A stretch of DNA of 64,000 nt from Psilocybe cubensis. Lineage: Eukaryota. The stretch is taken from NCBI GenBank assembly GCA_017499595.2, contig CM039000.1, positions 1 to 64,000 of the forward strand, in the 5' to 3' direction. Of the stretch, positions 1 through 33,500 are shown one piece after another. The first letter of the stretch is position 1; every line of letters starts with the position of its first letter. The translations under genes and the position numbers were made by a program. Below the pieces are notes generated by a model that was given only the letters and a program-made list of their open reading frames with translations, did not search any database and had not been told where the DNA came from.

Positions 1-140
1 TAAACCCTAAACCCTAAACCCTAAACCCTAAACCCTAAACCCTAAACCCTAAACCCTAAACCCTAAACCCTAAACCCTAAACCCTAAACCCTAAACCCTA
101 AACCCTAAACCCTAAACCCTAAACCCTAAACCCTAAACCC
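1..140. repeat. Terminal telomere tract (TAAACCC)n, i.e. TTTAGGG on the minus strand
   Basis: Perfect 7-mer tandem repeat at the window start, C-rich strand on +, which indicates a left chromosome end. Confidence 0.97.
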
Positions 141-742
141 TAAACCTAAACCTAAACCCTAAACCCTAAACCCTAAACCCTAACCTAACCCCAACCCTAA
201 GCTAACTAAGTCTAACCTTAGTAGGAAGTAAGGTAGGCGTGTGAACTTCCGAACGGCATGTGATTGTGAAGGGCCGGATCTAATTTAGTACATGGGAAAA
301 GTTACTTAGTACTTCGGGAAAAGTTCCTTAGTACCGTGGAAACATTTTTGATGGACCGGATCATGAACTGTCCAATTAAGATTCACAACAATCAATCATT
401 CTATTGTTTGATTGTTAGGTAAGGACCCAGGTAAGTTATTTATACTCTAGACATGTGAATATTCCCATGTCGCGGTTACTCGGAGCCACGTAACCAGAGT
501 AATCTATATCCATGTGATTCACATCACAGTCAATAACCCACGATGTCAAAGAACAAAAGTGTTGGATCCACTTTTGACAGGTTACCATGTGCCACATCGA
601 CCCGTGACACTCTGTTCATCAGAGACCTGTCTAACTTGACGATAAACATTGACAGATTTGTGATAGTCGGTAAGATACATGACAGCTGCGCAGCATCACT
701 TCACGCGCTGTCATCGGATGTCTAGAACATTCCTTCTAAGAA

Positions 743-1738
743 TAGCCACTGAAGAGTCTATAAAGACGAAAGGGCTGGTTGTTGGGATCCCCCAACAGCC
801 CTCAAGTACTCGTCCTCTCCCAAACTCCTGCCGCTTGTGCCTTCCCAACTCATCCGGGAGCCCTTTCGTCACTGATCTTGCCCTTGACTCGGGGACGTTT
901 CATCGACATGTTGGCTGCCTCACGGCAAGCGGGGCCCTTTTTCTTTCACTCGCTCACGCCTTCTATGTTGGGTTACGGAGGTCATACAAACTCGTTTTAG
1001 TCTAGCTGCGGGGATATCCAGCTATGATGACTTTGTAATTCGAGGGCGCGCAGTTCTTCAATGGGTATGGACATCAGGTGAGAGTACACTGGGGGTTGTC
1101 AGGACCAGCTCTGCTGGATACGCTCCTGGCAAGTCGGTTGCAGCCGGCGACACTACCGAATTGCTGGGACGTCCTAAAGCTTGTGGGTACCGCCGACCGC
1201 TGGAAACAGCCTAGGCACCGGTGGCGACCGGGTATGGTAACAATCCCCAAGATTCAGCGAAAGCTGGAATGGATAATCAGCAGCGAATCCGTAACGGTCA
1301 CGCCGACGGAAGCGTTCAACGACTAGGTGGTAGTGGGGTCTTCGGATCTTAAGATATAGTCTTGGGAGTGGGGAAACCCACATCTGGTATCTAAACCGCG
1401 CCTCGCTGCTTACGAGGACGGCCCGAAGACCAGAACCGCTTAAAACGCGGGTGACCCGGCCTCCCCTTAGTAAAGGGAGTTAACACAAGGATGGACAAAT
1501 AGTTCGTCGCCGGAAATGAACCTGTGGCTGTAATGGCTGATGTGGCGCCCCTTGGTAAAGGGCTTAAAGGGTATTAGCCTGCCATGTCCAATGGCATGAG
1601 AGTGTCCCTTGGTAAAGGACTTAATAGGCAATAGCCTGCTCTTTTGTCATGAGCGGTATGTAGTGATCGTTTGCCTGTACGGTAGCGCCCATTGCTTGCA
1701 CTGGTCCACGCCCGTAAAAAATCACGAGCCGCTGGCTA
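743..1738 (+). ncRNA. Type I hammerhead ribozyme split by a group I intron (5' part 743-802, 3' part 1732-1738)
   Basis: TAGCCA-CTGAAGA-GTCT(ATAA)AGAC-GAAA-GGGCTG...CAGCCC-T | intron | C-TGGCTA. Joining the two parts gives exactly the sequence at 6089-6155. Confidence 0.88.
803..1731 (+). ncRNA. Group I self-splicing intron, IC1-like, 929 nt, no evident ORF
   Basis: The 5' exon ends in U (802) and the intron ends in G (1731). P1 pairs exon ACAGCCCU with GGGGUUGU (1092-1099), with a U.G pair at the splice site. P3 is CACUACC 1151-1157/GGUAGUG 1329-1335; P4 is UGCUG/CAGCA; P7 is GACUA 1321-1325/UAGUC 1357-1361. Core motifs AAUUGCUGGGA, AAUCAGCAG, GUUCAACGACUA and AAGAUAUAGUC are present, plus a GAAA-capped P5b-like stem, a UUCG-capped P8 and a GAAA-capped P9. 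Confidence 0.9.
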
Positions 1739-1842
1739 CTTTCCATTTAACTCCCAGTTTAAACTAGTCGCTCGCACCTCGCTTCGCTCGGTGCTCGCTC
1801 CCCCCCTAAACCCAACGACTTTGCTATTATCCATCAGCCACT

Positions 1843-4800
1843 ATGTCATCTCAATACTCTGCTGCTTTCTCTCGTGCCATGTCCCCCACCCTGGACGCAC
1901 TCACCCAGGCCGTCGTCAACAACACCGTTTTCGGCGTCAACGATGAAGCAGGCCGCCATAACGCTCTGATCGACGAGCTGGCCACTGTGGTCATCAAAAA
2001 AATAGCTGAGTGCCGCTCCGTTGACCAAGTCATAGACTGCGTCTTTTTTGACTATCGTGCTGCCCTTAGGGAGTTTCTCCTCAACCTCGCATCGTGGTGC
2101 GATAAGAGGGAAACAGTCAAGGCTAGCCTCGAGCGCCTTGAATCTGCCGTTAGCGCAGGCAACACGCCCAATCGCCTTAAGGTGAAGGCACCCGAGTTCC
2201 AACTTACGAAGGAATTCGCGGATGCCGGGTCAGCGGAGGCTCTTCGAGTCTCCACTACGTTCTCTACCGCTCGTGACGCCTTCCAAAAGGCAATTAACGA
2301 CGGCGCCATTCAGGCGAAAAAGGACGAGCTGACTTTTTGGGATGATAAATGCGCACTCAACTCTTGCTACGAAGCTGCTGCCCTCATCGTTAAGGCAACT
2401 TACGATGATCGCAAATCCAGCTACAAGCTCCCTGTTTTCTCTACAGATAACAAGGGAGTTCGACGTATAGCAGAGTGGGTAGTGTCTCCGCAAAAGAAAG
2501 CCGAATGCAGTGCGCTGCAAACCATACTGCCGGCGATCTTTTCTCACATCAAACAAATTGTCAACATGCGCCACCGCGCTTTGGCAATTAAGATTGAGAA
2601 AAAGCGGACGACTGCGGCAACAGCCGATGTCGAGATGGCCGACGCGACCAAACCAGGTCCGTCGATTCAATCCCTTATTGATAAGGGCTTGAATGCACGT
2701 CTCAAGAAGCTCAACCTTGGATCTGTGGGCAAGAAGGCAAGTTTTCGTAACCCTTCACCCATAATTCTGGATACTAATTACTACTCTAATTACCCAGACT
2801 TTGTCTGGCCAGAATTCGTCCAAGGCTCCTCAACCTCAGGCCAAGAAAGCTGGCCCTTCGAAACCCAAGTCGTCGTCGACGCCTTCGCAACGCAAGCCTC
2901 AAACCAAGGCTTCCAACAAGGTCGACAACAAGAAGAAAGGGAAGGGGAGAGCTCCCGTCAAGAACGATCCAAAGGGAAAGGGAAAGGCAAGAGCCTAGAT
3001 GCGCGGTCTAATGTAGTACCTTTTACGTCGGTGAGACCCGCCTTCCCCAACTCTATTCCTGACGATATACTCACCATGACTAAAACAGACGCAGTTTCTT
3101 TCGTACACTTACATACTCCAATATCATTCTTGTTGGCTGGCCAGTATCGTAGTAGTGTACATTGTAGTCCTGGTGTTTCTGTCCCTGTTGATGTAGCAAA
3201 CGATCTCTCTCTCGGACTTAATTATATGTTTTTCACTCTGCCTTCTAAAAGTCTGATCATGCAAGCATGGAATGATTTCCAACGAAGAATAAGATGGCGT
3301 ATCTATTTTTTGTTTAAGGAAGGCATGAATAAACCTTTTGATCCAGATTATGGAGTAAGCTCAAAAAAGAAAGAGAAACCTCCTGTATTACCGCAATATA
3401 TGGAACTTGGCCTTTCGATGGGACGTCGGTACGTGCAACGCACGATCGCAAGTATCCCGGAAGAAGCCCTTACGGAGATGCGAAAGCACGCGTTCTCTCC
3501 TAAAAGGGACAAGATCCGTAAGTTTCTTATCGATAACAACTATGTTATTACGATGACAGATAAGAATCTTGGCCTCGCGGTGTCTGAACGCGACTGGATA
3601 TTAAGGAATGAGCTCAATCTTCTTGAAGATGAACGTAATTACGAAGAGTTAGAATTCGAAGTTGCGCAAGAAGTTATGAAGAGCAAAATGATTCAGATGC
3701 AAACGCTCGCACGTACTGTCGAAGATGAACATCTGTTTCTATTTGAACTTGGGTTGTCTCGATTCTTTCTATCGAATGTACCGGAAGACGGATCATCGTT
3801 CAAGTATCCTCAATTTCATGGTATACCTAAAATCCACAAGAAACCTACTGGATTTAGGCCCATAATTCCGTGTCACTCTGTAGTATTTAATCCTGCAGCC
3901 AAGTTTGTATCAAAAGAGCTTAAGCCGATTATTAAATCGACTCCTTCAATCATACACGGAACGAAGGATCTCTTTACGAGATTAAGCCAATTGCGTATAG
4001 ACTCCAAAAGACAATGGTATTTTGTCACTGGAGATGTAGTTGCTTTCTATCCCAATATTCCGTTGGACTTGTGCATCGAAATCGTTTGTAGTATGTACGA
4101 GGAATGGTTACTCAACGCTTCGGAAGAAAACACTGCATTAGCCCATATTAATCCAAATTCGTTAGAGAATAACTTGGTTAAATTGGGCATCTTTAAACGT
4201 GCTATCGAGATTGGCAATACGCAATTGATAACACAACATGGGTCTAGATATTTTAGACAAAAAAATGGCCTCGCAATGGGCGTCGCGGATTCTCCGGACC
4301 TTGCTAACCTCTTTGGAGCCCATTTTGAAATAAAGTCAAAAATCTTAGACCACCCAAACGTGGCCTTCTATGGAAGGTACATCGACGATTGTTTCGCAAT
4401 TGTTTACGCCGAGTCCGAAGCACTTGCACTTAATCTTATTAAAGAAACAATAAAGTTCGATGGTTGTGTTATCGAATGGGCTGTTTCCTCGTCGGGATGT
4501 CAATTTCTCGATGCTTTCATATTCAAGGAGTCTGGAAAACTTCATTGGAAGCCTTTTGTCAAGACAGGAAACAACCGAGAACGAGTTCCATGGGTATCAC
4601 ATCATCCTTTGGACGTCAAACGTGGCGTCTACATTGGAGAGTTATCCAGGTTAGCCGTGCTATGTAGTACCAAGGAAATCTACATCGGAGCAATTAGAGA
4701 CCTTAACGCTCTCTATTTGATGCGCGGTTATCCCGAAAACCTAGTCATATCTTGGTGTAAGAAGAATATACAAGAACGTTGGGAAAAGCGATTCGCTTTA

Positions 4801-5373
4801 CGAGTCGCAGAGCACGACGAATCCATTCTTGTACTTAAAACCAGATTTGATCAGGTATGGAATTGGTTTTCAGCTGCTGAACTTGGAAAAACTGTTACCG
4901 AGTACTGGTCGGCATGGTATGAACATGCCGAGAAAGGTTTGTATAGTGCAGACTCGTCCAGACCCCTTATCAAACCAGATCCAAATTACGTTCACGACCT
5001 CGATGATGTTCGCCCGGAGCTGTTCACACAGATCCTCGTGGACGGAGAAACTGAGTTCGTACCGGATTTGAGGAAGATAGGACTACTCGGAAGTCGTTGG
5101 ATAGTATCGCGAAAACGCAATACTAATCTTTTCGACCTTGCAAATGTGTGGAAGAAAACAGTCTTTCGTAAACTGGATGAAGACATCGCTGAAAAAGGTG
5201 GTGTTGTTCCCGAAACTCAAAACGTTAATGAAACTTATCATTCTGCTTTAGTTGAAGCTACTGAGCAGATAAGTATCGAAAGTGATAACGAGATAATACT
5301 TCATAGACGTTCAATCTCACAAGAGAGGGAACATCCAGAATTTGGCAGAATATCCAAATCTTACAACCGATGA
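1843..5373 (+). CDS. ORF1-reverse transcriptase polyprotein of a Penelope-like element (1176 aa), no GIY-YIG endonuclease
   Basis: PLE RT motifs: PKIHKKPTGFRPII, TGDVVAFYPNIP, QKNGLAMGVADSPDLANLF, YGRYIDD, FLD, and HHP..KRG...GELSR in the thumb. The N-terminus looks helical. Confidence 0.93.
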   Translation: MSSQYSAAFSRAMSPTLDALTQAVVNNTVFGVNDEAGRHNALIDELATVVIKKIAECRSVDQVIDCVFFDYRAALREFLLNLASWCDKRETVKASLERLESAVSAGNTPNRLKVKAPEFQLTKEFADAGSAEALRVSTTFSTARDAFQKAINDGAIQAKKDELTFWDDKCALNSCYEAAALIVKATYDDRKSSYKLPVFSTDNKGVRRIAEWVVSPQKKAECSALQTILPAIFSHIKQIVNMRHRALAIKIEKKRTTAATADVEMADATKPGPSIQSLIDKGLNARLKKLNLGSVGKKASFRNPSPIILDTNYYSNYPDFVWPEFVQGSSTSGQESWPFETQVVVDAFATQASNQGFQQGRQQEEREGESSRQERSKGKGKGKSLDARSNVVPFTSVRPAFPNSIPDDILTMTKTDAVSFVHLHTPISFLLAGQYRSSVHCSPGVSVPVDVANDLSLGLNYMFFTLPSKSLIMQAWNDFQRRIRWRIYFLFKEGMNKPFDPDYGVSSKKKEKPPVLPQYMELGLSMGRRYVQRTIASIPEEALTEMRKHAFSPKRDKIRKFLIDNNYVITMTDKNLGLAVSERDWILRNELNLLEDERNYEELEFEVAQEVMKSKMIQMQTLARTVEDEHLFLFELGLSRFFLSNVPEDGSSFKYPQFHGIPKIHKKPTGFRPIIPCHSVVFNPAAKFVSKELKPIIKSTPSIIHGTKDLFTRLSQLRIDSKRQWYFVTGDVVAFYPNIPLDLCIEIVCSMYEEWLLNASEENTALAHINPNSLENNLVKLGIFKRAIEIGNTQLITQHGSRYFRQKNGLAMGVADSPDLANLFGAHFEIKSKILDHPNVAFYGRYIDDCFAIVYAESEALALNLIKETIKFDGCVIEWAVSSSGCQFLDAFIFKESGKLHWKPFVKTGNNRERVPWVSHHPLDVKRGVYIGELSRLAVLCSTKEIYIGAIRDLNALYLMRGYPENLVISWCKKNIQERWEKRFALRVAEHDESILVLKTRFDQVWNWFSAAELGKTVTEYWSAWYEHAEKGLYSADSSRPLIKPDPNYVHDLDDVRPELFTQILVDGETEFVPDLRKIGLLGSRWIVSRKRNTNLFDLANVWKKTVFRKLDEDIAEKGGVVPETQNVNETYHSALVEATEQISIESDNEIILHRRSISQEREHPEFGRISKSYNR
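2737..2797 (+). other. Probable 61-nt GC-AG spliceosomal intron inside the ORF (equivalent position in all RT copies)
   Basis: Donor AAG|GCAAGT, CTAAT branch-like motifs, acceptor CCCAG|. Removing it joins codon 298 to the Lys-rich frame 2798-2998. Confidence 0.6.
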
Positions 5374-5485: not shown

Positions 5486-6088
5486 CTAAACCTAAACCTA
5501 AACCCTAAACCCTAAACCCTAAACCCTAACCTAACCCCAACCCTAAGCTAACTAAGTCTAACCTTAGTAGGAAGTAAGGTAGGCGTGTGAACTTCCGAAC
5601 GGCATGTGATTGTGAAGGGCCGGATCTAATTTAGTACATGGGAAAAGTTACTTAGTACTTCGGGAAAAGTTCCTTAGTACCGTGGAAACATTTTTGATGG
5701 ACCGGATCATGAACTGTCCAATTAAGATTCACAACAATCAATCATTCTATTGTTTGATTGTTAGGTAAGGACCCAGGTAAGTTATTTATACTCTAGACAT
5801 GTGAATATTCCCATGTCGCGGTTACTCGGAGCCACGTAACCAGAGTAATCTATATCCATGTGATTCACATCACAGTCAATAACCCACGATGTCAAAGAAC
5901 AAAAGTGTTGGATCCACTTTTGACAGGTTACCATGTGCCACATCGACCCGTGACACTCTGTTCATCAGAGACCTGTCTAACTTGACGATAAACATTGACA
6001 GATTTGTGATAGTCGGTAAGATACATGACAGCTGCGCAGCATCACTTCACGCGCTGTCATCGGATGTCTAGAACATTCCTTCTAAGAA

Positions 6089-6155
6089 TAGCCACTGAAG
6101 AGTCTATAAAGACGAAAGGGCTGGTTGTTGGGATCCCCCAACAGCCCTCTGGCTA
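6089..6155 (+). ncRNA. Intact type I hammerhead ribozyme (3' pLTR of copy 1), predicted cleavage after C6149
   Basis: Stem I UAGCCA/UGGCUA, core CUGAAGA, stem II GUCU/AGAC, GAAA, stem III GGGCUG/CAGCCC, cleavage triplet CUC. Confidence 0.92.
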
Positions 6156-6230
6156 CTTTCCATTTAACTCCCAGTTTAAACTAGTCGCTCGCACCTCGCT
6201 TCGCTCGGTGCTCGCTCCCCCCCTAAACCC

Positions 6231-6270: not shown

Positions 6271-9200
6271 CAGGCTGTCGTCAACAACACAGTTTTTGGC
6301 GTCAACGACGAAGCTGGCCGCCACAACGCCCTCATCGACGAGTTGGCCACTGTCGTCATCAAGAAAATAGCTGAGTGCCGCTCCATTGACCAGATTGTAG
6401 ACTGCGTCTTTTTTGACTATCGTGCTGCCCTTAGGGAGTTTCTCCTCAACCTCGCATCGTGGTGCGATAAGAGGGAAACAGTCAAGGCTAGCCTCGAGCG
6501 CCTTGAACTTGCCGTTAGCGCAGGCAACACCCCCAATCGCCTTCGGGTGAAGGCTCCCGAGTTCCAACTTACGAAGGAATTCGCGGATGCCGGGTCAGCG
6601 GAAGCTCTTCGAGTTTCCTCTACGTTCTCCACCGCTCGTGATGTCTTCCAAAAGGCAATCAACGACGGCGCCATTCAGGCGAAAAAGGACGAACTGGCCT
6701 TTTGGGATGATAAATGCGCACTCAATAACTGTTATGAAGCTGCTGCCCTCATCGTTAAGACAACTTACGATGATCGCAAATCCAGCTATAAGCTCCCCGT
6801 TTTCTCTACAGACAACAAGGGAGTTCGTCGAATAACAGATTGGGTAGTGTCACCGCAGAAGAAGGCTGAATGCAGCGCATTGCAAACCATTTTGCCAGCC
6901 ATCTTCTCTCATATCAAACAGATTGTCAACTTGCGCCACCGCGCTTTGGCAATCAAGATTGAGAAAAAGCGGTCGACTGCGGCAACAGCCGATGTCGAGA
7001 TGGCCGATGCGACCAAACCAGGTCCATCGATTCAATCCCTTATTGATAAGGGCTTGAATGCACGTCTCAAGAAGCTCAACCTTGGATCTGTGGGCAAGAA
7101 GGCAAGTTCTCGTAACCCTTCACCCATAATTCTGGATACTAATTACTATTCTAATTACCCAGACTTTGTCTGGCCAGAATTCGTCCAAGGCTCCTCAACC
7201 TCAGGCCAAGAAAGCTGGCCCTTCGAAATTCAAACCCTCGTCGACGCCTTCGCAGAAGAAGCCCCAAACCAAGGCTTCCAACAAGGTCGACAACAAGAAG
7301 AAAGGGAAGGGGAGAGCTCCCGTCAAGAACGATCCAAAGGGAAAGGGAAAGGCAAGAGCCTAGACGCGCGGTCTAATGTAGTACCTTTTACGTCGGTAAG
7401 ACCCGCCTTCCCCAACTCTATTCCTGACGATATACTCACCATGACTAAAACAGACGCAGTTTCTTTTGTACACTTACATACGCCGATCTCATTCTTGTTG
7501 GCTGGCCAGTATCGTAGTAGTGTACACTGTAGTCCTGGTGTGGTGGTCCCTGTAGATATAGCAAATGATTTGTCACTCGGACTCAATTATATGTTTTTTA
7601 CTCTACCTTCTCAAAGTCTGATCATGCAAGCATGGAATGATTTTCAACGAAGAATAAGATGGCGTATCTATTTTTTGTTTAAGGAAGGCATGAACAAACC
7701 TTTTGATCCAGATTACGGAGTAAGCTCAAAAAAGAAAGAGAAACCTCCAGTATTACCGCAATACATGGAACTTGGCCTTTCGATGGGACGTCGGTACGTG
7801 CAACGCACGATCGCAAGTATCCCGGAAGAAGCCCTTACGGAGATGCGAAAGCACGCGTTCTCTCCTAAAAGGGACAAGATCCGTAAGTTTCTTATCGATA
7901 ACAACTATGTTATTACGATGACAGATAAGAATCTTGGCCTCGCGGTGTCTGAACGCGACTGGATATTAAGGAATGAGCTCAATCTTCTTGAAGATGAACG
8001 TAACTATGAAGAGTTAGAATTCGAAGTTGCGCAAGAAGTAATGAAGAGCAAAATGATCCAGATGCAAACTCTTGCACGTACCGTCGAAGATGAACATCTG
8101 TTTCTATTTGAACTTGGATTGTCTCGATTCTTTCTATCGAATGTACCGGAAGACGGATCATCGTTCAAGTATCCTCAATTTCATGGTATACCTAAAATCC
8201 ACAAAAAACCTACTGGATTTAGGCCCATAATTCCGTGTCACTCTGTAGTATTTAATCCTGCAGCCAAGTTTGTATCAAAAGAGCTTAAGCCGATTATTAA
8301 ATCGACTCCTTCAATCATTCACGGAACGAAGGATCTCTTTACGAGATTAAGCCAATTGCGTATAGACCCCAAACGACAATGGTATTTTGTCACCGGGGAT
8401 GTAGTTGCTTTCTATCCCAATATTCCGTTGGACTTGTGCATCGAAATCGTTTGTAATATGTACGAGGAATGGTTACTCAACGCTTCGGAAGAAAACACTG
8501 CATTAGCCCATATTAATCCAAATTCGTTAGAGAATAACTTGGTTAAATTGGGCATCTTTAAACGTGCTATCGAGATTGGCAATACGCAATTGATAACACA
8601 ACATGGGTCTAGATATTTTAGACAAAAAAATGGCCTCGCAATGGGCGTCGCGGATTCTCCGGACCTTGCTAACCTCTTTGGAGCCCATTTTGAAATAAAG
8701 TCAAAAATCTTAGACCACCCAAACGTGGCCTTCTATGGAAGGTACATCGACGATTGTTTCGCAATTGTTTACGCCGAGTCCGAAGCACTTGCACTTAATC
8801 TTATTAAAGAAACAATAAAGTTCGATGGTTGTGTTATCGAATGGGCTGTTTCCTCGTCGGGATGTCAATTTCTCGATGCTTTCATATTCAAGGAGTCTGG
8901 AAAACTTCATTGGAAGCCATTTGTCAAGACAGGAAACAACCGAGAACGAGTTCCATGGGTATCACATCATCCTTTGGACGTCAAACGTGGCGTCTACATT
9001 GGAGAGTTATCCAGGTTAGCCGTGCTATGTAGTACCAAGGAAATCTACATCGGAGCAATTAGAGACCTTAACGCTCTCTATTTGATGCGCGGTTATCCCG
9101 AAAACCTAGTCATGTCTTGGTGTAAGAAGAATATACAAGAACGTTGGGAAAAGCGATTCGCTTTACGAGTCGCAGAGCACGACGAATCCATTCTTGTACT

Positions 9201-10650: not shown

Positions 10651-13600
10651 CTAAACCTAAACCTAAACCCTAAACCCTAAACCCTAAGCCCTAACCTAAC
10701 CCCAACCCTAAGCTAACTAAGTCTAACCTTAGTAGGAAGTAAGGTAGGCGTGTGAACTTCCGAAAGGCATGTGATTGTGAAGGGCCGGATCTAATTTAGT
10801 ACATGGGAAAAGTTACTTAGTACCTCGGGAAAAGTTCCTTAGTACCGTGGAAACATTTTTGATGGACCGGATCATGAACTGTCCAATTAAGATTCACAAC
10901 AATCAATCAATTGATTGTTAGGTAAGGACCCAGGTAAGCTATTTATACTCTTGACATGAGAATATTCCCATGTCACGGTTACTCGGAGCCACGTAACCAG
11001 AGTATTTTATATCCATGTGATTCACATCACAGTCAATAACCCACGATGTCAAAGAACAAAAGTGTTGGATCCACTTTTGACAGGTTACCATGTGCCACAT
11101 CGACCCGTGACACTCTGTTCATCAGAGATCTGTCTAACTTGACAATAAACATTGACAGATTTGTGATAGTCGGTAAGATACATGACAGCTGCGCAGCATC
11201 ACTTCACGCGCTGTCATCGGATGTTCCAGAACATTCCTTCTAAGAATAGCCACTGAAGAGTCTATAAAGACGAAAGGGCTGGCTGCTGATAACAATCAAC
11301 AGCCCTCTGGCCTTCTTTCCATTTAACTCACAGTTTAAACAAGTCGCTCGCACCTCGCTTCGCTCGGTGCTCGCTCCCCCCCTAAACCCAACGACTTTGC
11401 TATTACCCAACAGCTACTATGTCTTCCACTTACTCTGCTGCCTTCTCTCGTGCCATGTCCCCCACCCTGGACGCACTCACCCAGGCTGTCGTCAACAACA
11501 CAGTTTTTGGCGTCAACGACGAAGCTGGCCGCCACAACGCCCTCATCGACGAGTTGGCCACTGTCGTCATCAAGAAAATAGCTGAGTGCCGCTCCATTGA
11601 CCAGATTGTAGACTGCGTCTTTTTTGACTATCGTGCTGCCCTTAGGGAGTTTCTCCTCAACCTCGCATCGTGGTGCGATAAGAGGGAAACAGTCAAGGCT
11701 AGCCTCGAGCGCCTTGAACTTGCCGTTAGCGCAGGCAACACCCCCAATCGCCTTCGGGTGAAGGCTCCCGAGTTCCAACTTACGAAGGAATTCGCGGATG
11801 CCGGGTCAGCGGAAGCTCTTCGAGTTTCCTCTACGTTCTCCACCGCTCGTGATGTCTTCCAAAAGGCAATCAACGACGGCGCCATTCAGGCGAAAAAGGA
11901 CGAACTGGCCTTTTGGGATGATAAATGCGCACTCAATAACTGTTATGAAGCTGCTGCCCTCATCGTTAAGACAACTTACGATGATCGCAAATCCAGCTAT
12001 AAGCTCCCCGTTTTCTCTACAGACAACAAGGGAGTTCGTCGAATAACAGATTGGGTAGTGTCACCGCAGAAGAAGGCTGAATGCAGCGCATTGCAAACCA
12101 TTTTGCCAGCCATCTTCTCTCATATCAAACAGATTGTCAACTTGCGCCACCGCGCTTTGGCAATCAAGATTGAGAAAAAGCGGTCGACTGCGGCAACAGC
12201 CGATGTCGAGATGGCCGATGCGACCAAACCAGGTCCATCGATTCAATCCCTTATTGATAAGGGCTTGAATGCACGTCTCAAGAAGCTCAACCTTGGATCT
12301 GTGGGCAAGAAGGCAAGTTCTCGTAACCCTTCACCCATAATTCTGGATACTAATTACTATTCTAATTACCCAGACTTTGTCTGGCCAGAATTCGTCCAAG
12401 GCTCCTCAACCTCAGGCCAAGAAAGCTGGCCCTTCGAAATTCAAACCCTCGTCGACGCCTTCGCAGAAGAAGCCCCAAACCAAGGCTTCCAACAAGGTCG
12501 ACAACAAGAAGAAAGGGAAGGGGAGAGCTCCCGTCAAGAACGATCCAAAGGGAAAGGGAAAGGCAAGAGCCTAGACGCGCGGTCTAATGTAGTACCTTTT
12601 ACGTCGGTAAGACCCGCCTTCCCCAACTCTATTCCTGACGATATACTCACCATGACTAAAACAGACGCAGTTTCTTTTGTACACTTACATACGCCGATCT
12701 CATTCTTGTTGGCTGGCCAGTATCGTAGTAGTGTACACTGTAGTCCTGGTGTGGTGGTCCCTGTAGATATAGCAAATGATTTGTCACTCGGACTCAATTA
12801 TATGTTTTTTACTCTGCCTTCTCAAAGTCTGATCATGCAAGCATGGAATGATTTTCAACGAAGAATAAGATGGCGTATCTATTTTTTGTTTAAGGAAGGC
12901 ATGAACAAACCTTTTGATCCAGATTACGGAGTAAGCTCAAAAAAGAAAGAGAAACCTCCAGTATTACCGCAATACATGGAACTTGGCCTTTCGATGGGAC
13001 GTCGGTACGTGCAACGCACGATCGCAAGTATCCCGGAAGAAGCCCTTACGGAGATGCGAAAGCACGCGTTCTCTCCTAAAAGGGACAAGATCCGTAAGTT
13101 TCTTATCGATAACAACTATGTTATTACGATGACAGATAAGAATCTTGGCCTCGCGGTGTCTGAACGCGACTGGATATTAAGGAATGAGCTCAATCTTCTT
13201 GAAGATGAACGTAACTATGAAGAGTTAGAATTCGAAGTTGCGCAAGAAGTAATGAAGAGCAAAATGATCCAGATGCAAACTCTTGCACGTACCGTCGAAG
13301 ATGAACATCTGTTTCTATTTGAACTTGGGTTGTCTCGATTCTTTCTATCGAATGTACCGGAAGACGGATCATCGTTCAAGTATCCTCAATTTCATGGTAT
13401 ACCTAAAATCCACAAAAAACCTACTGGATTTAGGCCCATAATTCCGTGTCACTCTGTAGTATTTAATCCTGCAGCCAAGTTTGTATCAAAAGAGCTTAAG
13501 CCGATTATTAAATCGACTCCTTCAATCATTCACGGAACGAAGGATCTCTTTACGAGATTAAGCCAATTGCGTATAGACCCCAAACGACAATGGTATTTTG

Positions 13601-15796: not shown

Positions 15797-16415
15797 CCTA
15801 ACCCCAACCCTAAGCTAACTAAGTCTAACCTTAGTAGGAAGTAAGGTAGGCGTGTGAACTTCCGAACGGCATGTGATTGTGAAGGGCCGGATCTAATTTA
15901 GTACATGGGAAAAGTTACTTAGTACTTCGGGAAAAGTTCCTTAGTACCGTGGAAACATTTTTGATGGACCGGATCATGAACTGTCCAATTAAGATTCACA
16001 ACAATCAATCATTCTATTGTTTGATTGTTAGGTAAGGACCCAGGTAAGTTATTTATACTCTAGACATGTGAATATTCCCATGTCGCGGTTACTCGGAGCC
16101 ACGTAACCAGAGTAATCTATATCCATGTGATTCACATCACAGTCAATAACCCACGATGTCAAAGAACAAAAGTGTTGGATCCACTTTTGACAGGTTACCA
16201 TGTGCCACATCGACCCGTGACACTCTGTTCATCAGAGACCTGTCTAACTTGACAATAAACATTGACAGATTTGTGATAGTCGGTAAGATACATGACAGCT
16301 GCGCAGCATCACTTCACGCGCTGTCATCGGATGTCTAGAACATTCCTTCTAAGAATAGCCACTGAAGAGTCTATAAAGACGAAAGGGCTGGTTGTTGGGA
16401 TCCCCCAACAGCCCT

Positions 16416-17344
16416 CAAGTACTCGTCCTCTCCCAAACTCCTGCCGCTTGTGCCTTCCCAACTCATCCGGGAGCCCTTTCGTCACTGATCTTGCCCTTGA
16501 CTCGGGGACGTTTCATCGACATGTTGGCTGCCTCACGGCAAGCGGGGCCCTTTTTCTTTCACTCGCTCACGCCTTCTATGTTGGGTTACGGAGGTCATAC
16601 AAACTCGTTTTAGTCTAGCTGCGGGGATATCCAGCTATGATGACTTTGTAATTCGAGGGCGCGCAGTTCTTCAATGGGTATGGACATCAGGTGAGAGTAC
16701 ACTGGGGGTTGTCAGGACCAGCTCTGCTGGATACGCTCCTGGCAAGTCGGTTGCAGCCGGCGACACTACCGAATTGCTGGGACGTCCTAAAGCTTGTGGG
16801 TACCGCCGACCGCTGGAAACAGCCTAGGCACCGGTGGCGACCGGGTATGGTAACAATCCCCAAGATTCAGCGAAAGCTGGAATGGATAATCAGCAGCGAA
16901 TCCGTAACGGTCACGCCGACGGAAGCGTTCAACGACTAGGTGGTAGTGGGGTCTTCGGATCTTAAGATATAGTCTTGGGAGTGGGGAAACCCACATCTGG
17001 TATCTAAACCGCGCCTCGCTGCTTACGAGGACGGCCCGAAGTCCAGAACCGCTTAAAACGCGGGTGACCCGGCCTCCCCTTAGTAAAGGGAGTTAACACA
17101 AGGATGGACAAATAGTTCGTCGCCGGAAATGAACCTGTGGCTGTAATGGCTGATGTGGCGCCCCTTGGTAAAGGGCTTAAAGGGTATTAGCCTGCCATGT
17201 CCAATGGCATGAGAGTGTCCCTTGGTAAAGGACTTAATAGGCAATAGCCTGCTCTTTTGTCATGAGCGGTATGTAGTGATCGTTTGCCTGTACGGTAGCG
17301 CCCATTGCTTGCACTGGTCCACGCCCGTAAAAAATCACGAGCCG
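16416..17344 (+). ncRNA. Group I intron, second complete copy, at the same hammerhead position
   Basis: CAGCCCT|CAAGTACTC...GAGCCG|CTGGCTA; near-identical to 803-1731. Confidence 0.9.
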
Positions 17345-17455
17345 CTGGCTACTTTCCATTTAACTCCCAGTTTAAACTAGTCGCTCGCACCTCGCTTCGC
17401 TCGGTGCTCGCTCCCCCCCTAAACCCAACGACTTTGCTATTATCCATCAGCCACT

Positions 17456-20400: not shown

Positions 20401-20986
20401 GCGATTCGCTTTACGAGTCGCAGAGCACGACGAATCCATTCTTGTACTTAAAACCAGATTTGATCAGGTATGGAATTGGTTTTCAGCTGCTGAACTTGGA
20501 AAAACTGTTACCGAGTACTGGTCGGCATGGTATGAACATGCCGAGAAAGGTTTGTATAGTGCAGACTCGTCCAGACCCCTTATCAAACCAGATCCAAATT
20601 ACGTTCACGACCTCGATGATGTTCGCCCGGAGCTGTTCACACAGATCCTCGTGGACGGAGAAACTGAGTTCGTACCGGATTTGAGGAAGATAGGACTACT
20701 CGGAAGTCGTTGGATAGTATCGCGAAAACGCAATACTAATCTTTTCGACCTTGCAAATGTGTGGAAGAAAACAGTCTTTCGTAAACTGGATGAAGACATC
20801 GCTGAAAAAGGTGGTGTTGTTCCCGAAACTCAAAACGTTAATGAAACTTATCATTCTGCTTTAGTTGAAGCTGCTGAGCAGATAAGTATCGAAAGTGATA
20901 ACGAGATAATACTTCATAGACGTTCAATCTCACAAGAGAGGGAACATCCAGAATTTGGCAGAATATCCAAATCTTACAACCGATGA
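17456..20986 (+). CDS. ORF1-RT polyprotein (1176 aa)
   Basis: Intact; a few substitutions relative to copy 1. Confidence 0.93.
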   Translation: MSSQYSAAFSRAMSPTLDALTQAVVNNTVFGVNDEAGRHNALIDELATVVIKKIAECRSVDQVIDCVFFDYRAALREFLLNLASWCDKRETVKASLERLESAVSAGNTPNRLKVKAPEFQLTKEFANAGSAEALRVSTTFSTARDAFQKAINDGAIQAKKDELTFWDDKCALNSCYEAAALIVKATYDDRKSSYKLPVFSTDNKGVRRIAEWVVSPQKKAECSALQTILPAIFSHIKQIVNMRHRALAIKIEKKRTTAATADVEMADATKPGPSIQSLIDKGLNARLKKLNLGSVGKKASFRNPSPIILDTNYYSNYPDFVWPEFIQGSSTSGQESWPFETQVVVDAFATQASNQGFQQGRQQEEREGESSRQERSKGKGKGKSLDARSNVVPFTSVRPAFPNSIPDDILTMTKTDAVSFVHLHTPISFLLAGQYRSSVHCSPGVSVPVDVANDLSLGLNYMFFTLPSKSLIMQAWNDFQRRIRWRIYFLFKEGMNKPFDPDYGVSSKKKEKPPVLPQYMELGLSMGRRYVQRTIASIPEEALTEMRKHAFSPKRDKIRKFLIDNNYVITMTDKNLGLAVSERDWILRNELNLLEDERNYEELEFEVAQEVMKSKMIQMQTLARTVEDEHLFLFELGLSRFFLSNVPEDGSSFKYPQFHGIPKIHKKPTGFRPIIPCHSVVFNPAAKFVSKELKPIIKSTPSIIHGTKDLFTRLSQLRIDSKRQWYFVTGDVVAFYPNIPLDLCIEIVCSMYEEWLLNASEENTALAHINPNSLENNLVKLGIFKRAIEIGNTQLITQHGSRYFRQKNGLAMGVADSPDLANLFGAHFEIKSKILDHPNVAFYGRYIDDCFAIVYAESEALALNLIKETIKFDGCVIEWAVSSSGCQFLDAFIFKESGKLHWKPFVKTGNNRERVPWVSHHPLDVKRGVYIGELSRLAVLCSTKEIYIGAIRDLNALYLMRGYPENLVISWCKKNIQERWEKRFALRVAEHDESILVLKTRFDQVWNWFSAAELGKTVTEYWSAWYEHAEKGLYSADSSRPLIKPDPNYVHDLDDVRPELFTQILVDGETEFVPDLRKIGLLGSRWIVSRKRNTNLFDLANVWKKTVFRKLDEDIAEKGGVVPETQNVNETYHSALVEAAEQISIESDNEIILHRRSISQEREHPEFGRISKSYNR

Positions 20987-21701
20987 AAAGAATACTAGCG
21001 CTTAAGGCGTAAAGCATTAGAAAAAAACCCTAACCGTAAGTATTCCTTGCTATAAAGTAACAAACATCTACTTACAAGCAACACATTGGATTGAATAGCT
21101 AAACCTAAACCTAAACCCTAAACCCTAAACCCTAAACCCTAACCTAACCCCAACCCTAAGCTAACTAAGTCTAACCTTAGTAGGAAGTAAGGTAGGCGTG
21201 TGAACTTCCGAACGGCATGTGATTGTGAAGGGCCGGATCTAATTTAGTACATGGGAAAAGTTACTTAGTACTTCGGGAAAAGTTCCTTAGTACCGTGGAA
21301 ACATTTTTGATGGACCGGATCATGAACTGTCCAATTAAGATTCACAACAATCAATCATTCTATTGTTTGATTGTTAGGTAAGGACCCAGGTAAGTTATTT
21401 ATACTCTAGACATGTGAATATTCCCATGTCGCGGTTACTCGGAGCCACGTAACCAGAGTAATCTATATCCATGTGATTCACATCACAGTCAATAACCCAC
21501 GATGTCAAAGAACAAAAGTGTTGGATCCACTTTTGACAGGTTACCATGTGCCACATCGACCCGTGACACTCTGTTCATCAGAGACCTGTCTAACTTGACA
21601 ATAAACATTGACAGATTTGTGATAGTCGGTAAGATACATGACAGCTGCGCAGCATCACTTCACGCGCTGTCATCGGATGTCTAGAACATTCCTTCTAAGA
21701 A

Positions 21702-25825: not shown

Positions 25826-28800
25826 CCGGAAATGAACCTGTGGCTGTAATGGCTGATGTGGCGCCCCTTGGTAAAGGGCTTAAAGGGTATTAGCCTGCCA
25901 TGTCCAATGGCATGAGAGTGTCCCTTGGTAAAGGACTTAATAGGCAATAGCCTGCTCTTTTGTCATGAGCGGTATGTAGTGATCGTTTGCCTGTACGGTA
26001 GCGCCCATTGCTTGCACTGGTCCACGCCCGTAAAAAATCACGAGCCGCTGGCTTCTTTCCATTTTAACTCCCAGTTTAAACTAGTCGCTCGCACCTCGCT
26101 TCGCTCGGTGCTCGCTCCCCCCCTAAACCCAACGACTTTGCTATCACCCATCAGCCACTATGTCATCCCAATATTCTGCTGCTTTCTCTCGTGCCATGTC
26201 CCCCACCCTGGACGCACTCACCCAGGCCGTCGTCAACAACACCGTCTTCGGCGTCAACGATGAAGCAGGCCGCCAAAACGCTCTCATCGACGAGCTGGCC
26301 ACTGTGGTCATCAAGAAAATAGCTGAGTGCCGCTCCGTTGATCAAATAATAGACTGCGTCTTTTTTGACTATCGCGCTGCCCTTAGGGAGTTTCTCCTCA
26401 ACCTCGCATCGTGGTGCGACAAGAGGGAAACAGTCAGGGCTAGCCTTGAGCGCCTTGAACTTGCCGTTAGCGCAGGCAGCACCCCCAATCGCCTTAAGGT
26501 GAAGGCTCCCGAGTTCCAACTCACGAAGGAATTCGCGGATGCCGGGTCAGCGGAGGCTCTTCGAGTCTCTACTACGTTCTCCACCGCTCGTGACGTCTTC
26601 CAAAAGGCGATTAACGACGGCGCCATTCAGGCGAAAAAGGACGAACTGGCCTTTTGGGAGGATAAATGCGCACTCGCTTCTTGCTATGAAGCTGCTGCGG
26701 TCATCGTTAAGACAACTTACGAAGACCGCAAGTCCAGCTATAAGCTCCCCGTTTTCTCTACAGACAACAAGGGAGTTCGTCGCATAGCAGAGTGGGTAAC
26801 GTCGCCGCAAAAGAAAGCCGAGTGCAGTGCGCTGCAAACTATACTGCCGGCTATCTTTTCTCATATCAAACAAATTGTCAAATTGCGCCACCGCGCTTTG
26901 GCAATTAAGATTGAGAAAAAGCGGTCGACCGCGGCTACAGCCGATGTCGAGATGGCCGACGCGACCAAACCAGGTCCGTCGATTCAATCCCTTATTGATA
27001 AGGGCTTGAATGCACGTCTTAAGAAGCTCAACCTTGGATATGTGGGCAAGAAGGCAGGTTTTCGTAACCCTTCACCCATAACTTTGGATACTAATTATTA
27101 TTCTAATTACCCAGACTTCGTCTGGCCAGAGTTCGTCCAAGGCTCCTCAACCTCAGGCCAAGAAAACTGGCCCTTCGAAACCCAAGTCGTCGTCGACGCC
27201 TTCGCAACGCAAGCCTCAAACCAAGGCTTCCAACAAGGTCGACAACAAGAAGAAAGGGAAGGGGAGAGCTCCCGTCAAGAACAACGATCCAAAGGGAAAG
27301 GGAAAGGCAAGAGCCTAAACGCGCGGTCTAATGTAGTACCTTTTACGTCGGTAAGACCCGCTTTCCCCAACTCTATTCCTGACGATATACTCACCATGAC
27401 TAAAACAGACGCAGTTTCATTTGTACACCTCAATACCCCAATTTCTTTCTTATTGGCTGGCCAGTATAGATCTAGTGTACATTGTAGTCCTGGTGTTGTA
27501 GTTCCGGTTGATGTAGCAAACGACTTATCTCTCGGTTTAAATTATATGTTTTTCACACTGCCTTCTCAAAGTCTGATCATGCAAGCATGGAATGATTTTC
27601 AACGAAGAATAAGATGGCGTATCTATTTTTTGTTTAAAGAAGGCATGAATAAACCTTTTGATCCAGATTATGGAGTAAGTTCTAAGAAAAAAGAAAAACC
27701 TCCTGTATTACCGCAATTTATGGAACTTGGCCTTTCAATGGGACGTCGGTACGTTATTAAAACGATCGCAAGTATCCCGGAAGAAGCCCTCAAGGAGATG
27801 CGAAAGCACGCGTTCTCTCCTAAAAGGGACAAGATCCAAAAGTTTCTTATCGATAACAACTATGTTATTACGATGACAGATAAGAATCTTGGCCTCGCGG
27901 TGTCTGAACGCGACTGGATATTAAGGAATGAGCTCAATCTTCTTGAAGATGAACGTAATTACGAAGAGCTAGAATTCGAAGTTGCGCAAGAAGTAATGAA
28001 GAGCAAAATGATCCAGATGCAAACTCTTGCACGTACCGTCGAAGATGAACATCTGTTTCTATTTGAACTTGGGTTGTCTCGATTCTTTCTATCGAATGTA
28101 CCGGAAGACGGATCATCGTTCAAGTATCCTCAATTTCATGGTATACCTAAAATCCACAAAAAACCTACTGGATTTAGGCCCATAATTCCGTGTCACTCTG
28201 TAGTATTTAATCCTGCAGCCAAGTTTGTATCAAAAGAGCTTAAGCCGATTATTAAATCGACTCCTTCAATCATTCACGGAACGAAGGATCTCTTTACGAG
28301 ATTAAGCCAATTGCGTATAGACCCCAAACGACAATGGTATTTTGTCACCGGGGATGTAGTTGCTTTCTATCCCAATATTCCGTTGGACTTGTGCATCGAA
28401 ATCGTTTGTAATATGTACGAGGAATGGTTACTCAACGCTTCGGAAGAAAACACTGCATTAGCCCATATTAATCCAAATTCGTTAGAGAATAACTTGGTTA
28501 AATTGGGCATCTTTAAACGTGCTATCGAGATTGGCAATACGCAATTGATAACACAACATGGGTCTAGATATTTTAGACAAAAAAATGGCCTCGCAATGGG
28601 CGTCGCGGATTCTCCGGACCTTGCTAACCTCTTTGGAGCCCATTTTGAAATAAAGTCAAAAATCTTAGACCACCCAAACGTGGCCTTCTATGGAAGGTAC
28701 ATCGACGATTGTTTCGCAATTGTTTACGCCGAGTCCGAAGCACTTGCACTTAATCTTATTAAAGAAACAATAAAGTTCGATGGTTGTGTTATCGAATGGG

Positions 28801-30563: not shown

Positions 30564-33500
30564 CCCTTGGTAAAGGGCTTAAAGGGTATTAGCCTGCCAT
30601 GTCCAATGGCATGAGAGTGTCCCTTGGTAAAGGACTTAATAGGCAATAGCCTGCTCTTTTGTCATGAGCGGTATGTAGTGATCGTTTGCCTGTACGGTAG
30701 CGCCCATTGCTTGCACTGGTCCACGCCCGTAAAAAATCACGAGCCGCTGGCTTCTTTCCATTTTAACTCCCAGTTTAAACTAGTCGCTCGCACCTCGCTT
30801 CGCTCGGTGCTCGCTCCCCCCCTAAACCCAACGACTTTGCTATCACCCATCAGCCACTATGTCATCCCAATATTCTGCTGCTTTCTCTCGTGCCATGTCC
30901 CCCACCCTGGACGCACTCACCCAGGCCGTCGTCAACAACACCGTCTTCGGCGTCAACGATGAAGCAGGCCGCCAAAACGCTCTCATCGACGAGCTGGCCA
31001 CTGTGGTCATCAAGAAAATAGCTGAGTGCCGCTCCGTTGATCAAATAATAGACTGCGTCTTTTTTGACTATCGCGCTGCCCTTAGGGAGTTTCTCCTCAA
31101 CCTCGCATCGTGGTGCGACAAGAGGGAAACAGTCAGGGCTAGCCTTGAGCGCCTTGAACTTGCCGTTAGCGCAGGCAGCACCCCCAATCGCCTTAAGGTG
31201 AAGGCTCCCGAGTTCCAACTCACGAAGGAATTCGCGGATGCCGGGTCAGCGGAGGCTCTTCGAGTCTCTACTACGTTCTCCACCGCTCGTGACGTCTTCC
31301 AAAAGGCGATTAACGACGGCGCCATTCAGGCGAAAAAGGACGAACTGGCCTTTTGGGAGGATAAATGCGCACTCGCTTCTTGCTATGAAGCTGCTGCGGT
31401 CATCGTTAAGACAACTTACGAAGACCGCAAGTCCAGCTATAAGCTCCCCGTTTTCTCTACAGACAACAAGGGAGTTCGTCGCATAGCAGAGTGGGTAACG
31501 TCGCCGCAAAAGAAAGCCGAGTGCAGTGCGCTGCAAACTATACTGCCGGCTATCTTTTCTCATATCAAACAAATTGTCAAATTGCGCCACCGCGCTTTGG
31601 CAATTAAGATTGAGAAAAAGCGGTCGACCGCGGCTACAGCCGATGTCGAGATGGCCGACGCGACCAAACCAGGTCCGTCGATTCAATCCCTTATTGATAA
31701 GGGCTTGAATGCACGTCTTAAGAAGCTCAACCTTGGATATGTGGGCAAGAAGGCAGGTTTTCGTAACCCTTCACCCATAACTTTGGATACTAATTATTAT
31801 TCTAATTACCCAGACTTCGTCTGGCCAGAGTTCGTCCAAGGCTCCTCAACCTCAGGCCAAGAAAACTGGCCCTTCGAAACCCAAGTCGTCGTCGACGCCT
31901 TCGCAACGCAAGCCTCAAACCAAGGCTTCCAACAAGGTCGACAACAAGAAGAAAGGGAAGGGGAGAGCTCCCGTCAAGAACAACGATCCAAAGGGAAAGG
32001 GAAAGGCAAGAGCCTAAACGCGCGGTCTAATGTAGTACCTTTTACGTCGGTAAGACCCGCTTTCCCCAACTCTATTCCTGACGATATACTCACCATGACT
32101 AAAACAGACGCAGTTTCATTTGTACACCTCAATACCCCAATTTCTTTCTTATTGGCTGGCCAGTATAGATCTAGTGTACATTGTAGTCCTGGTGTTGTAG
32201 TTCCGGTTGATGTAGCAAACGACTTATCTCTCGGTTTAAATTATATGTTTTTCACACTGCCTTCTCAAAGTCTGATCATGCAAGCATGGAATGATTTTCA
32301 ACGAAGAATAAGATGGCGTATCTATTTTTTGTTTAAAGAAGGCATGAATAAACCTTTTGATCCAGATTATGGAGTAAGTTCTAAGAAAAAAGAAAAACCT
32401 CCTGTATTACCGCAATTTATGGAACTTGGCCTTTCAATGGGACGTCGGTACGTTATTAAAACGATCGCAAGTATCCCGGAAGAAGCCCTCAAGGAGATGC
32501 GAAAGCACGCGTTCTCTCCTAAAAGGGACAAGATCCAAAAGTTTCTTATCGATAACAACTATGTTATTACGATGACAGATAAGAATCTTGGCCTCGCGGT
32601 GTCTGAACGCGACTGGATATTAAGGAATGAGCTCAATCTTCTTGAAGATGAACGTAATTACGAAGAGCTAGAATTCGAAGTTGCGCAAGAAGTAATGAAG
32701 AGCAAAATGATCCAGATGCAAACTCTTGCACGTACCGTCGAAGATGAACATCTGTTTCTATTTGAACTTGGGTTGTCTCGATTCTTTCTATCGAATGTAC
32801 CGGAAGACGGATCATCGTTCAAGTATCCTCAATTTCATGGTATACCTAAAATCCACAAAAAACCTACTGGATTTAGGCCCATAATTCCGTGTCACTCTGT
32901 AGTATTTAATCCTGCAGCCAAGTTTGTATCAAAAGAGCTTAAGCCGATTATTAAATCGACTCCTTCAATCATTCACGGAACGAAGGATCTCTTTACGAGA
33001 TTAAGCCAATTGCGTATAGACCCCAAACGACAATGGTATTTTGTCACCGGGGATGTAGTTGCTTTCTATCCCAATATTCCGTTGGACTTGTGCATCGAAA
33101 TCGTTTGTAATATGTACGAGGAATGGTTACTCAACGCTTCGGAAGAAAACACTGCATTAGCCCATATTAATCCAAATTCGTTAGAGAATAACTTGGTTAA
33201 ATTGGGCATCTTTAAACGTGCTATCGAGATTGGCAATACGCAATTGATAACACAACATGGGTCTAGATATTTTAGACAAAAAAATGGCCTCGCAATGGGC
33301 GTCGCGGATTCTCCGGACCTTGCTAACCTCTTTGGAGCCCATTTTGAAATAAAGTCAAAAATCTTAGACCACCCAAACGTGGCCTTCTATGGAAGGTACA
33401 TCGACGATTGTTTCGCAATTGTTTACGCCGAGTCCGAAGCACTTGCACTTAATCTTATTAAAGAAACAATAAAGTTCGATGGTTGTGTTATCGAATGGGC

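Follow-up and report, generated by a model that had tools for sequence, protein, structure and literature searches.

A group I intron interrupts a predicted hammerhead motif in a telomeric retroelement of Psilocybe cubensis assigned to the Penelope-like elements

Group I introns of the IC1 subgroup are marked by P2 and P2.1 together with an extended P5 (P5abc-type) scaffold, group II introns retrohome, encode their own reverse transcriptase (RT) and insert into DNA, and hepatitis delta virus (HDV)-like ribozymes occur in R2 and its relatives. According to the cited sections of three articles, all known nuclear group I introns interrupt ribosomal RNA (rRNA) genes (PMC3679873, PMC8395846, PMC9223047); the first of these sources also attributes a more complex scaffold domain to IC1 and describes the complete pathway of reverse splicing, reverse transcription and integration as being without experimental evidence for group I introns (PMC3679873). 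The endonuclease-less Penelope-like elements (PLEs) Coprina, of fungi, and Athena, of rotifers, are described, in the part of the source cited here, as telomere-attached retroelements with reverse-complement telomere repeats at their 3′ ends, 5′ truncations and pseudo-long terminal repeats (pLTRs) (PMC8557442), and the hammerheads of fungal PLEs, likewise in the cited part, as type I with a large helix III (PMC4209133). Here we describe a 929-nt group I intron in the pLTR of a telomeric retroelement in the first 64,000 nt of contig CM039000.1 of P. cubensis (assembly GCA_017499595.2; this whole 64-kb stretch is hereafter called the window).

The intron resembles the all-ribozyme IC1 introns of ribosomal DNA (rDNA), of which that of the Tetrahymena large subunit (LSU) gene is the example in the cited section (PMC3679873), in its full core, P2/P2.1, complex P5 extension, U.G pair at the 5′ splice site, terminal G, lack of an open reading frame (ORF) and optional presence among copies. 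It differs from them in residing in a telomeric retrotransposon pLTR, in carrying about 270 nt in L1, in having many genomic copies in several element subfamilies, and in that its host supplies reverse transcription and integration. The host resembles Coprina and Athena, as portrayed in the cited parts of two sources, in its putative RT without GIY-YIG domain, in 3′ ends that face inward from the chromosome end and carry short reverse-complement telomere repeats, in 5′ truncations and, close to the 3′ end, in a predicted type I hammerhead whose helix III is large (PMC8557442, PMC4209133). It differs from described PLEs in its group I intron, PLEs being known to retain spliceosomal, not self-splicing, introns. 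The small self-cleaving ribozymes of retrotransposons (PLE and retrozyme hammerheads) are also catalytic RNAs in an untranslated part of a retroelement transcript; these only cleave and are thought to process element RNA, whereas the window intron is a predicted splicing ribozyme, is optional and interrupts one of them. As in mobile group II introns, the intron RNA would reverse-splice and be fixed in DNA by an RT; unlike them, it would borrow the RT and the telomere targeting of its host and would insert into RNA. Twin-ribozyme introns (GIR1 plus GIR2) likewise hold two nested ribozymes, one affecting the other, but both are group I-derived and lie inside the intron in the account given in the cited section (PMC3679873), whereas here a group I intron is nested in the hammerhead of its host. 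A literature search, with most subscription journals outside its full-text range, found no report of a group I intron in a PLE or other nuclear retrotransposon, and the matching passages of the PLE literature name group I introns only as the source of GIY-YIG endonucleases. The ribozyme class is a known one; its host and life cycle are of a new kind.

In a cmscan search, the group I intron family RF00028 of Rfam matched positions 1087-1383 over the full model (1-253 of 253; 70.9 bits, E 5.6e-16; gathering cut-off 50 bits) and positions 16700-16996 with the same score of 70.9 bits, and these two were the only RNA matches at the gathering level in the window. The limits of the intron were obtained from copies of the same pLTR, composed of parts A and B, that lack it. 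All 13 intron-less A|B junctions (13/13) read CAGCCCTC|TGGC; the 5′ junctions of the intron (n=2) read ...CAGCCCT|CAAGTAC and its 3′ junctions (n=4) ...CACGAGCCG|CTGGC. This comparison leaves one base (C) ambiguous, and the group I rule, with U ahead of the intron and G as its last base, therefore places the limits at 803 and 1731. The boundaries are thus U|C...G|C, the 5′ exon ending with U802 and the intron with G1731 (omega-G), followed by C1732, at a site that reads ACAGCCCTCTGGC in intron-less copies. No rRNA match was found in 100-2000, even at E up to 10, and the flanks are repeated pLTR sequence; the GC content is 0.54 in the intron, 0.43 in part A and 0.45 in the element body. The preliminary description had proposed, from the letters alone, an IC1-like group I intron at 803..1731 that lies outside rDNA, is carried by a retrotransposon and lacks a homing endonuclease, and the match, the junctions and the flanks agree with it. 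As to the endonuclease, 22 stop-to-stop frames of at least 30 aa overlap the intron, the longest being 112 aa, and none of the 10 of these 22 frames compared with Pfam reached a curated cut-off (best E 0.11).

The predicted P1 consists of eight consecutive pairs between the exon strand ACAGCCCU (795-802) and the guide GGGGUUGU (1092-1099), which falls at the beginning of the Rfam match. U802.G1092 is the splice-site pair, and the chance expectation of such a run of pairs is about 0.003 within 10 positions. C803 is able to pair with G1091. Hairpins of the P2 and P2.1 types were read from the predicted fold at 1100-1127 and 1133-1149. A P5abc-like extension had also been recognised earlier, and its GAAA-capped stem at 1199-1210 and GGUAACAA stretch at 1237-1244 both fall in the P5 extension, which was kept (two GAAA loops, GGUAACAA) with compensatory changes in all five aligned cores (5/5), those of the relatives included. 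By P2/P2.1 and the extended P5, applied to a match with the general RF00028 model, the intron is classified as IC1. The stretch at 1056-1078 just 5′ of the guide (GTTCTTCAATGG ... GACAT.AGGT) lies in the optional L1 insert, and yet is nearly the same in the window and in L078, a metagenome locus treated below. The CCCUU(G/A)GUAAAGG motif of the P9 extension, with the following GGGUAUUAGCC, is also present in the introns of L078 and of a second metagenome locus, L036, and may be a peripheral docking or protein-binding module.

The earlier placement of the insertion in a retroelement pLTR was correct, but it had been overlooked that the site falls inside a predicted hammerhead of that pLTR. At the intron-less A|B junction the motif comprises helix I (UAGCCA/UGGCUA), CUGAAGA, helix II with loop AUAA, GAAA, a long helix III and UC, the predicted cut being after UC and before UGGCUA. 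The RAGATH-1 hammerhead model aligned with the whole motif of the intact copy at 6070-6154 (29.1 bits, E 0.012, cut-off 56.3), and the core words of the hammerhead were found in both the window and L078, the helices differing compensatorily between these two. With U16.1 directly before it and C17 directly after it, the intron lies one base 5′ of the scissile bond and splits the predicted hammerhead by 929 nt, C17 and the second helix I strand (1733-1738) being placed beyond it. As the intron divides the predicted hammerhead, exon ligation would restore it; and as 795-802 is common to P1 and helix III, the group I and hammerhead folds would compete and exclude each other.

The host is one member of an array of a single retroelement family that extends head to tail, all on the + strand, from the telomere tract to about 41.8 kb, in which 13 copies of pLTR part A and 8 RT bodies were counted. 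A full unit consists of an A+B terminal repeat, a 3.67-kb body with a 1176-aa ORF (copy 1: 1843-5373), a short telomere-like stretch, and then A and B again; units terminate in CCCTAAACCC, and several copies are 5′-truncated with telomere repeats as a cap. Full-length copies without the intron keep the 1176-aa ORF intact (e.g. 11419-14949), and the RT bodies form three subfamilies that are 95.5-97% alike. The RT ORF produced no Pfam match at E<=0.01 and no PDB relative at E<=1 by sequence search. Among 7999 scored candidates, 273 homologues were obtained at E<=1e-10, with RVT_1, DUF8422 and HTH_animal as precomputed domains; the closest named ones were P. cubensis proteins (98-99% identity), and the nearest clusters in a protein atlas belong to Basidiomycota and Rotifera. 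Telomere attachment, reverse-complement telomere repeats at the 3′ ends, 5′ truncations, pLTRs and the lack of an endonuclease fit the published description, and a hammerhead near the 3′ end is a further described trait; the host is therefore assigned, by features and homologues rather than by a tree with reference PLEs, to the endonuclease-less PLEs of the Coprina/Athena type. The features of the intron and its host are collected in Table 1. In the unique subtelomeric part of the window, an ORF resembling NOD-like receptors (NLR; NPHP3_N match, E 8e-6) was found at 51291-52175 on the minus strand, as expected for a nuclear chromosome end.

Table 1. Coordinates of the predicted intron, its parts and copies, and of the host retroelement, in the window.
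Feature	Position	Strand	Details
Group I intron, 929 nt	803..1731	+	RF00028 core plus intron-less junctions; GC 0.54
Predicted exon strand of P1, ACAGCCCU	795..802	+	Also 3′ strand of hammerhead helix III
Predicted internal guide sequence, GGGGUUGU	1092..1099	+	G1092 pairs with U802; co-varies in L078
Predicted P1 extension	806..1087	+	Helix 806-811/1082-1087 closes ~270-nt L1 insert; insert conserved with L078
Predicted catalytic core, P1(3′)-P9	1087..1383	+	P2, P2.1, P5abc-type extension
Predicted P9 extension	1384..1731	+	~350 nt; three CCCUU(G/A)GUAAAGG hairpin motifs at 1464, 1549 and 1606; ends with G1731
Predicted type I hammerhead, 5′ part	743..802	+	Helix I 743-748, CUGAAGA 749-755, helix II 756-767, GAAA 768-771, helix III 772-801, U16.1 802
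Second full intron copy	16416..17344	+	In element copy 15791-21213; 1/929 bases differs (1429)
Intron 3′ 222 nt	25826..26047	+	5′ end of truncated element copy; immediately preceded by telomere repeats; 222/222 bases as in 1510-1731
Intron 3′ 183 nt	30564..30746	+	5′ end of truncated element copy; immediately preceded by telomere repeats; 183/183 bases as in 1549-1731
Telomere repeat tract (CCCTAAA)n	5..183	+	Left end of window; degenerate repeats then open pLTR part A
pLTR part A, copy 1 (5′ exon)	178..802	+	140-803 versus intron-less A at 5486-6149: 100% over 664 nt
pLTR part B (3′ exon)	1732..1813	+	C17, hammerhead helix I strand, hairpin 1774-1794, terminal CCCTAAACCC
RT ORF, 1176 aa	1843..5373	+	PKIHK, DKN and YIDD motifs by reading of the translation; no GIY-YIG domain
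Downstream pLTR of copy 1	5486..6230	+	Without intron; predicted hammerhead intact

The distribution of the intron within the array bears marks of events at the RNA level. Thirteen of the 15 A-side junctions are without intron, which is present in two of the three RT-body subfamilies. Besides the two full copies, the array holds two element copies whose first bases correspond to intron positions 1510 and 1549 and immediately follow telomere repeats. These are products of 5′-truncated reverse transcription onto the chromosome end and, being truncated within the intron, show that the RNA copied was unspliced. Over the 664 nt compared in Table 1, the part A that carries the intron and the part A that lacks it are identical, and gain or loss of the intron was therefore recent and exact. 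Between copy 1 and the copy at 25826 there are no differences in the 222 nt of intron and 55 in the next 869 nt (Fisher p 3.5e-6). Differences set in 7 and 15 nt beyond the 3′ splice site, the one at +7 being the first in this comparison, and the intron is identical between element subfamilies about 4% apart. With its identity among diverged hosts, the intron thus looks younger than they are and seems to have moved without co-conversion of the flank, which is expected of reverse splicing and not of endonuclease homing. Each event could be either a gain by reverse splicing or a loss by splicing and reverse transcription. The only base that distinguishes the two full copies, at 1429, is A in copy 1 and T in the second copy, in all 106 reads of sequencing run X17 and in contigs of runs X8 and X10, so the A is private to the most distal copy.

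In public sequencing data, the intron was found in 14 of the 20 runs listed, from six studies. In run X17, which belongs to another study, the raw DNA depth was about 1400 in part A, about 100 and even in the intron, and about 360 at the start of the body; 100 reads skipped from 802 to 1732, and 9 reads with 7 start points joined 1731 to 803, a head-to-tail intron junction at the ribozyme-defined ends. This junction would come from reverse splicing into the 5′ splice site of unspliced RNA, which could give it as this site still reads ACAGCCCU|C, or from complementary DNA of a full-length intron circle. Loose ends at 803 facing upstream or at 1731 facing downstream were not present among the 11 of 94 ends listed for X17. 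A contig of run X10, from another organism, spans 1214-1771 and so covers the junction of the intron with part B.

Metagenome loci (at least 117) were picked with a core pattern taken from the window intron. A tblastn search with the window RT revealed homologues in four of the at least 117 loci so picked (L036, L078, L059 and L047; 29-34% identity, E 1e-46 to 1e-155), in each of which the RT lies downstream of a group I core on the same strand. In Rfam comparison, the two cores of L078 scored 72.8 and 76.5 bits, that of L047 68.8 bits, that of L036, which is cut by the contig end, 39.6 bits, and that of L059 34.3 bits. L071 is a near-copy of L078, and L042 is related to L047 and its contig ends ahead of any ORF. 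Homologous introns beside RTs of 29-34% identity indicate that the arrival of the intron was not a one-off. The route suggested in the preliminary description, namely arrival by reverse splicing into element RNA with fixation by the element RT, gains indirect support from the intron-truncated copies, the identity across subfamilies without flank co-conversion and the 1731>803 reads.

L078 is the most informative relative. Its upstream pLTR differs from its downstream pLTR by an 846-nt insert with boundary letters U|C...G|C, and this intron aligns with the window intron over the full length, including the L1 insert and the P9 extension, whereas the pLTR flanks do not align. The exon of L078 reads GACUUCGU and its guide GCAAAAGUC; relative to the window P1, positions -2, -4 and -5 are changed on both sides, and positions -6 to -8 as well if one bulged A is allowed. 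The predicted hammerhead of L078 is intact and lies 13 nt upstream of the splice site. A second, diverged core (76.5 bits) is found in L078 at 7813-8126 on the minus strand, between part B and the RT ORF, and L042 also has two group I cores (227-851). The hairpin of part B (1774-1794 in the window) has an 11-nt loop, UCGCUUCGCUC, that is the same in the window, L078 (minus strand, directly 3′ of the intron) and L036 (at about 800-840), with differing stems. It is followed by the reverse-complement telomere repeats and is probably a 3′-end recognition element of these retroelements. The telomere units are the 7-mer CCCTAAA in the window, CCCTAA at the ends of the L078 elements and CCTAA at those of L047 and L042, so each element matches a different host telomere.

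Of the 72 pairs predicted for the five PLE-linked cores, 30 show double changes that preserve pairing. The RNAalifold consensus models neither P7 nor P8, and most positions that vary among strains or species fall beyond the aligned core. The four relatives give a poor alignment in their L1 inserts (-6.5 kcal/mol), only the window and L078 being alike there. In a tree of 102 cores, from which L059 was left out for too little upstream sequence, five of the six PLE-labelled rows formed one group (Shimodaira-Hasegawa-like approximate likelihood ratio test, SH-aLRT, 90, not starred), and the nearest rows outside it were at a path length of at least 1.08. No rRNA match at the gathering score was found in the 13 neighbouring loci scanned. 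The group I loci listed include one LSU rDNA locus, L056; of 20 listed loci compared with its LSU-bearing stretch, 15 matched only at its introns and 5 gave no match, and no rDNA donor or donor site was found among the metagenome loci compared. A likeness of the exon to some known site of rDNA insertion was considered and given up. The cores nearest the retroelement-borne ones (L094, L101, L021, L095 and L085) are on contigs with giant-virus-type genes, namely major capsid genes of nucleocytoplasmic large DNA viruses (NCLDV), chlorovirus glycoprotein repeats and photolyases. Four loci (L076, L098, L095 and L009) carry many group I matches in a row with no rRNA match at the gathering score: L076 has 13 in its 10.5 kb together with ORFs for HNH endonucleases, L098 has 5 in 3.5 kb, and L095 has 6. 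Genes crowded with introns, from a giant virus or a protist, could account for these loci.

Taken together, these observations make it likely, in our judgement, that the intron is a passenger without a homing endonuclease gene that persists and moves through the RNA-to-DNA cycle of its retroelement. It is probably active as a ribozyme; we infer ribozyme splicing and reverse splicing. In the proposed cycle, exon 795-802 would pair with guide 1092-1099 in the element RNA to form P1, a guanosine would attack after U802, and the exons would join at U802|C1732. The ligated exons, ...CAGCCCU|CUGGCUAC, would have the same sequence as the intron-less pLTRs and would re-create an intact hammerhead. The element RT would copy both unspliced and spliced RNA onto telomeres, giving intron-bearing and intron-less copies, respectively; the excised intron would probably re-enter intron-less element RNA by reverse splicing at ACAGCCCU|C and be fixed in DNA by the same RT, and related introns may follow the same cycle in distantly related elements. 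A wider proposal is held more tentatively, at somewhat short of an even chance: that a group I lineage left rDNA, partners telomere-building PLEs and completes in nature a full mobility cycle at the RNA level, from excision to integration at chromosome ends, which is not known to have been demonstrated for group I introns, the intron here being also a removable lock on the hammerhead.

Several points weigh against the passenger reading. Catalytic activity is deduced from sequence, P10 appears weak on reading of the sequence, and the hammerhead scores under the Rfam cut-offs (29.1 against 56.3 for RAGATH-1, 19.5 against 48.5 for type III). The P1 of L078 needs an A.C mismatch at position -3 and a bulge. 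The head-to-tail junction comes from 9 reads of one run with no single-copy depth for scaling, and spliced RNA would be indistinguishable from transcripts of intron-less copies. An RT template switch in the first 6 nt of part B would yield the same identity across subfamilies, and the contrast becomes weak (p 0.07) when only the 82 nt of part B, with their 2 differences, are compared. As the pattern that picked the metagenome loci was derived from the window intron, 4/117 is not a frequency; the support of the PLE-linked group, SH-aLRT 90, is not starred, with L036 placed elsewhere on a long branch. Finally, the intron is in the upstream pLTR only, in both lineages that show it, for which the passenger model gives no explanation.

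This last point also counts for a different account, that the ribozyme is not a passenger but a domesticated working part of the retroelement clade. Such a part might keep the upstream hammerhead switched off before splicing, help to form the 5′ end of the RNA, or ligate exons of successive tandem units into circular or concatemeric templates. A group I core accompanies the RT in elements whose RT proteins share only 29-34% identity, the window and L078 introns both occupy the short interval that separates the hammerhead from the conserved 3′ hairpin and are both confined to the upstream pLTR, the P1 exon strand of the window is the 3′ strand of helix III, which makes the folds mutually exclusive, and the L1 insert is conserved between the two introns. 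We still regard a working part as unlikely: the intron is optional, being absent from 13 of 15 A-side junctions, full-length copies without it have intact 1176-aa ORFs, the hammerhead of L078 is uninterrupted with the intron 13 nt downstream of its cut, and the smaller divergence of the intron, compared with that of its hosts, suits a mobile guest more than a fixed organ. Quite improbable, too, is an inactive relic of a single ancestral entry that lost splicing, with the intron-less pLTRs being older and the patchwork produced by recombination or template switching. Template switching is common in retroelements, the long L1 insert and P9 extension might hinder folding, and the splicing assumed for a passenger is putative. 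However, the core fits the family model over its full length with helices that co-vary among diverged relatives, the guide of L078 followed the exon changes, the 100% identity over 664 nt of part A with and without the intron points to a recent, base-exact change, and a junction at exactly 1731|803 is hard to obtain without ribozyme chemistry.

Since nuclear group I introns are otherwise known only from rDNA in the cited sections (PMC3679873, PMC8395846, PMC9223047), the insert could be a piece of intron-containing rDNA or another captured transcript copied by template switching. This is scarcely credible: 100-2000 is devoid of rRNA matches at E up to 10, the limits of the insert fall exactly at U|...G| and the guide matches, and the intron depth in X17 is low and even, unlike rDNA, with no ends in another context among the 11 of 94 listed. 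Spread as DNA, by gene conversion or by a homing endonuclease encoded elsewhere, would have a precedent in homing, which the cited section describes as the known efficient route of nuclear group I introns (PMC3679873), but is very improbable given that no endonuclease domain was found in the 10 of 22 intron frames scanned, that the flank was not co-converted, with differences 7 and 15 nt after the 3′ splice site, and that the telomere-capped copies truncated in the intron are RT products. Other candidates were considered and rejected. Reverse transcription round a circular RNA (B-body-A) would account for the pLTRs and their 4.41-kb spacing but could not confine the intron to the upstream pLTR. 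The one-base ambiguity of the limits also brought up an insert at 804-1732, ligated by the hammerhead at its C|U cut; this fails in that an excised group I intron is without the needed cyclic-phosphate end and in that 13 nt separate the L078 intron from the cut. For a reassortment of part A and part B types where they join, ordinary divergence is an equally good explanation.

The window intron would be an exception to the rule that nuclear group I introns reside in rDNA only, and one that recurs in several distantly related elements. It adds a self-splicing-type intron to the known oddity that PLEs keep introns through retrotransposition, and it nests two unrelated ribozymes, a hammerhead and a group I intron, in one retroelement RNA, as predicted from their motifs. 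An intron in the RNA of an active retrotransposon has reverse transcription and integration built into its host, and the DNA already bears footprints of such events; the RNA pathway is therefore directly testable in a culturable fungus, which would offer a natural system for testing how group I introns spread through RNA.

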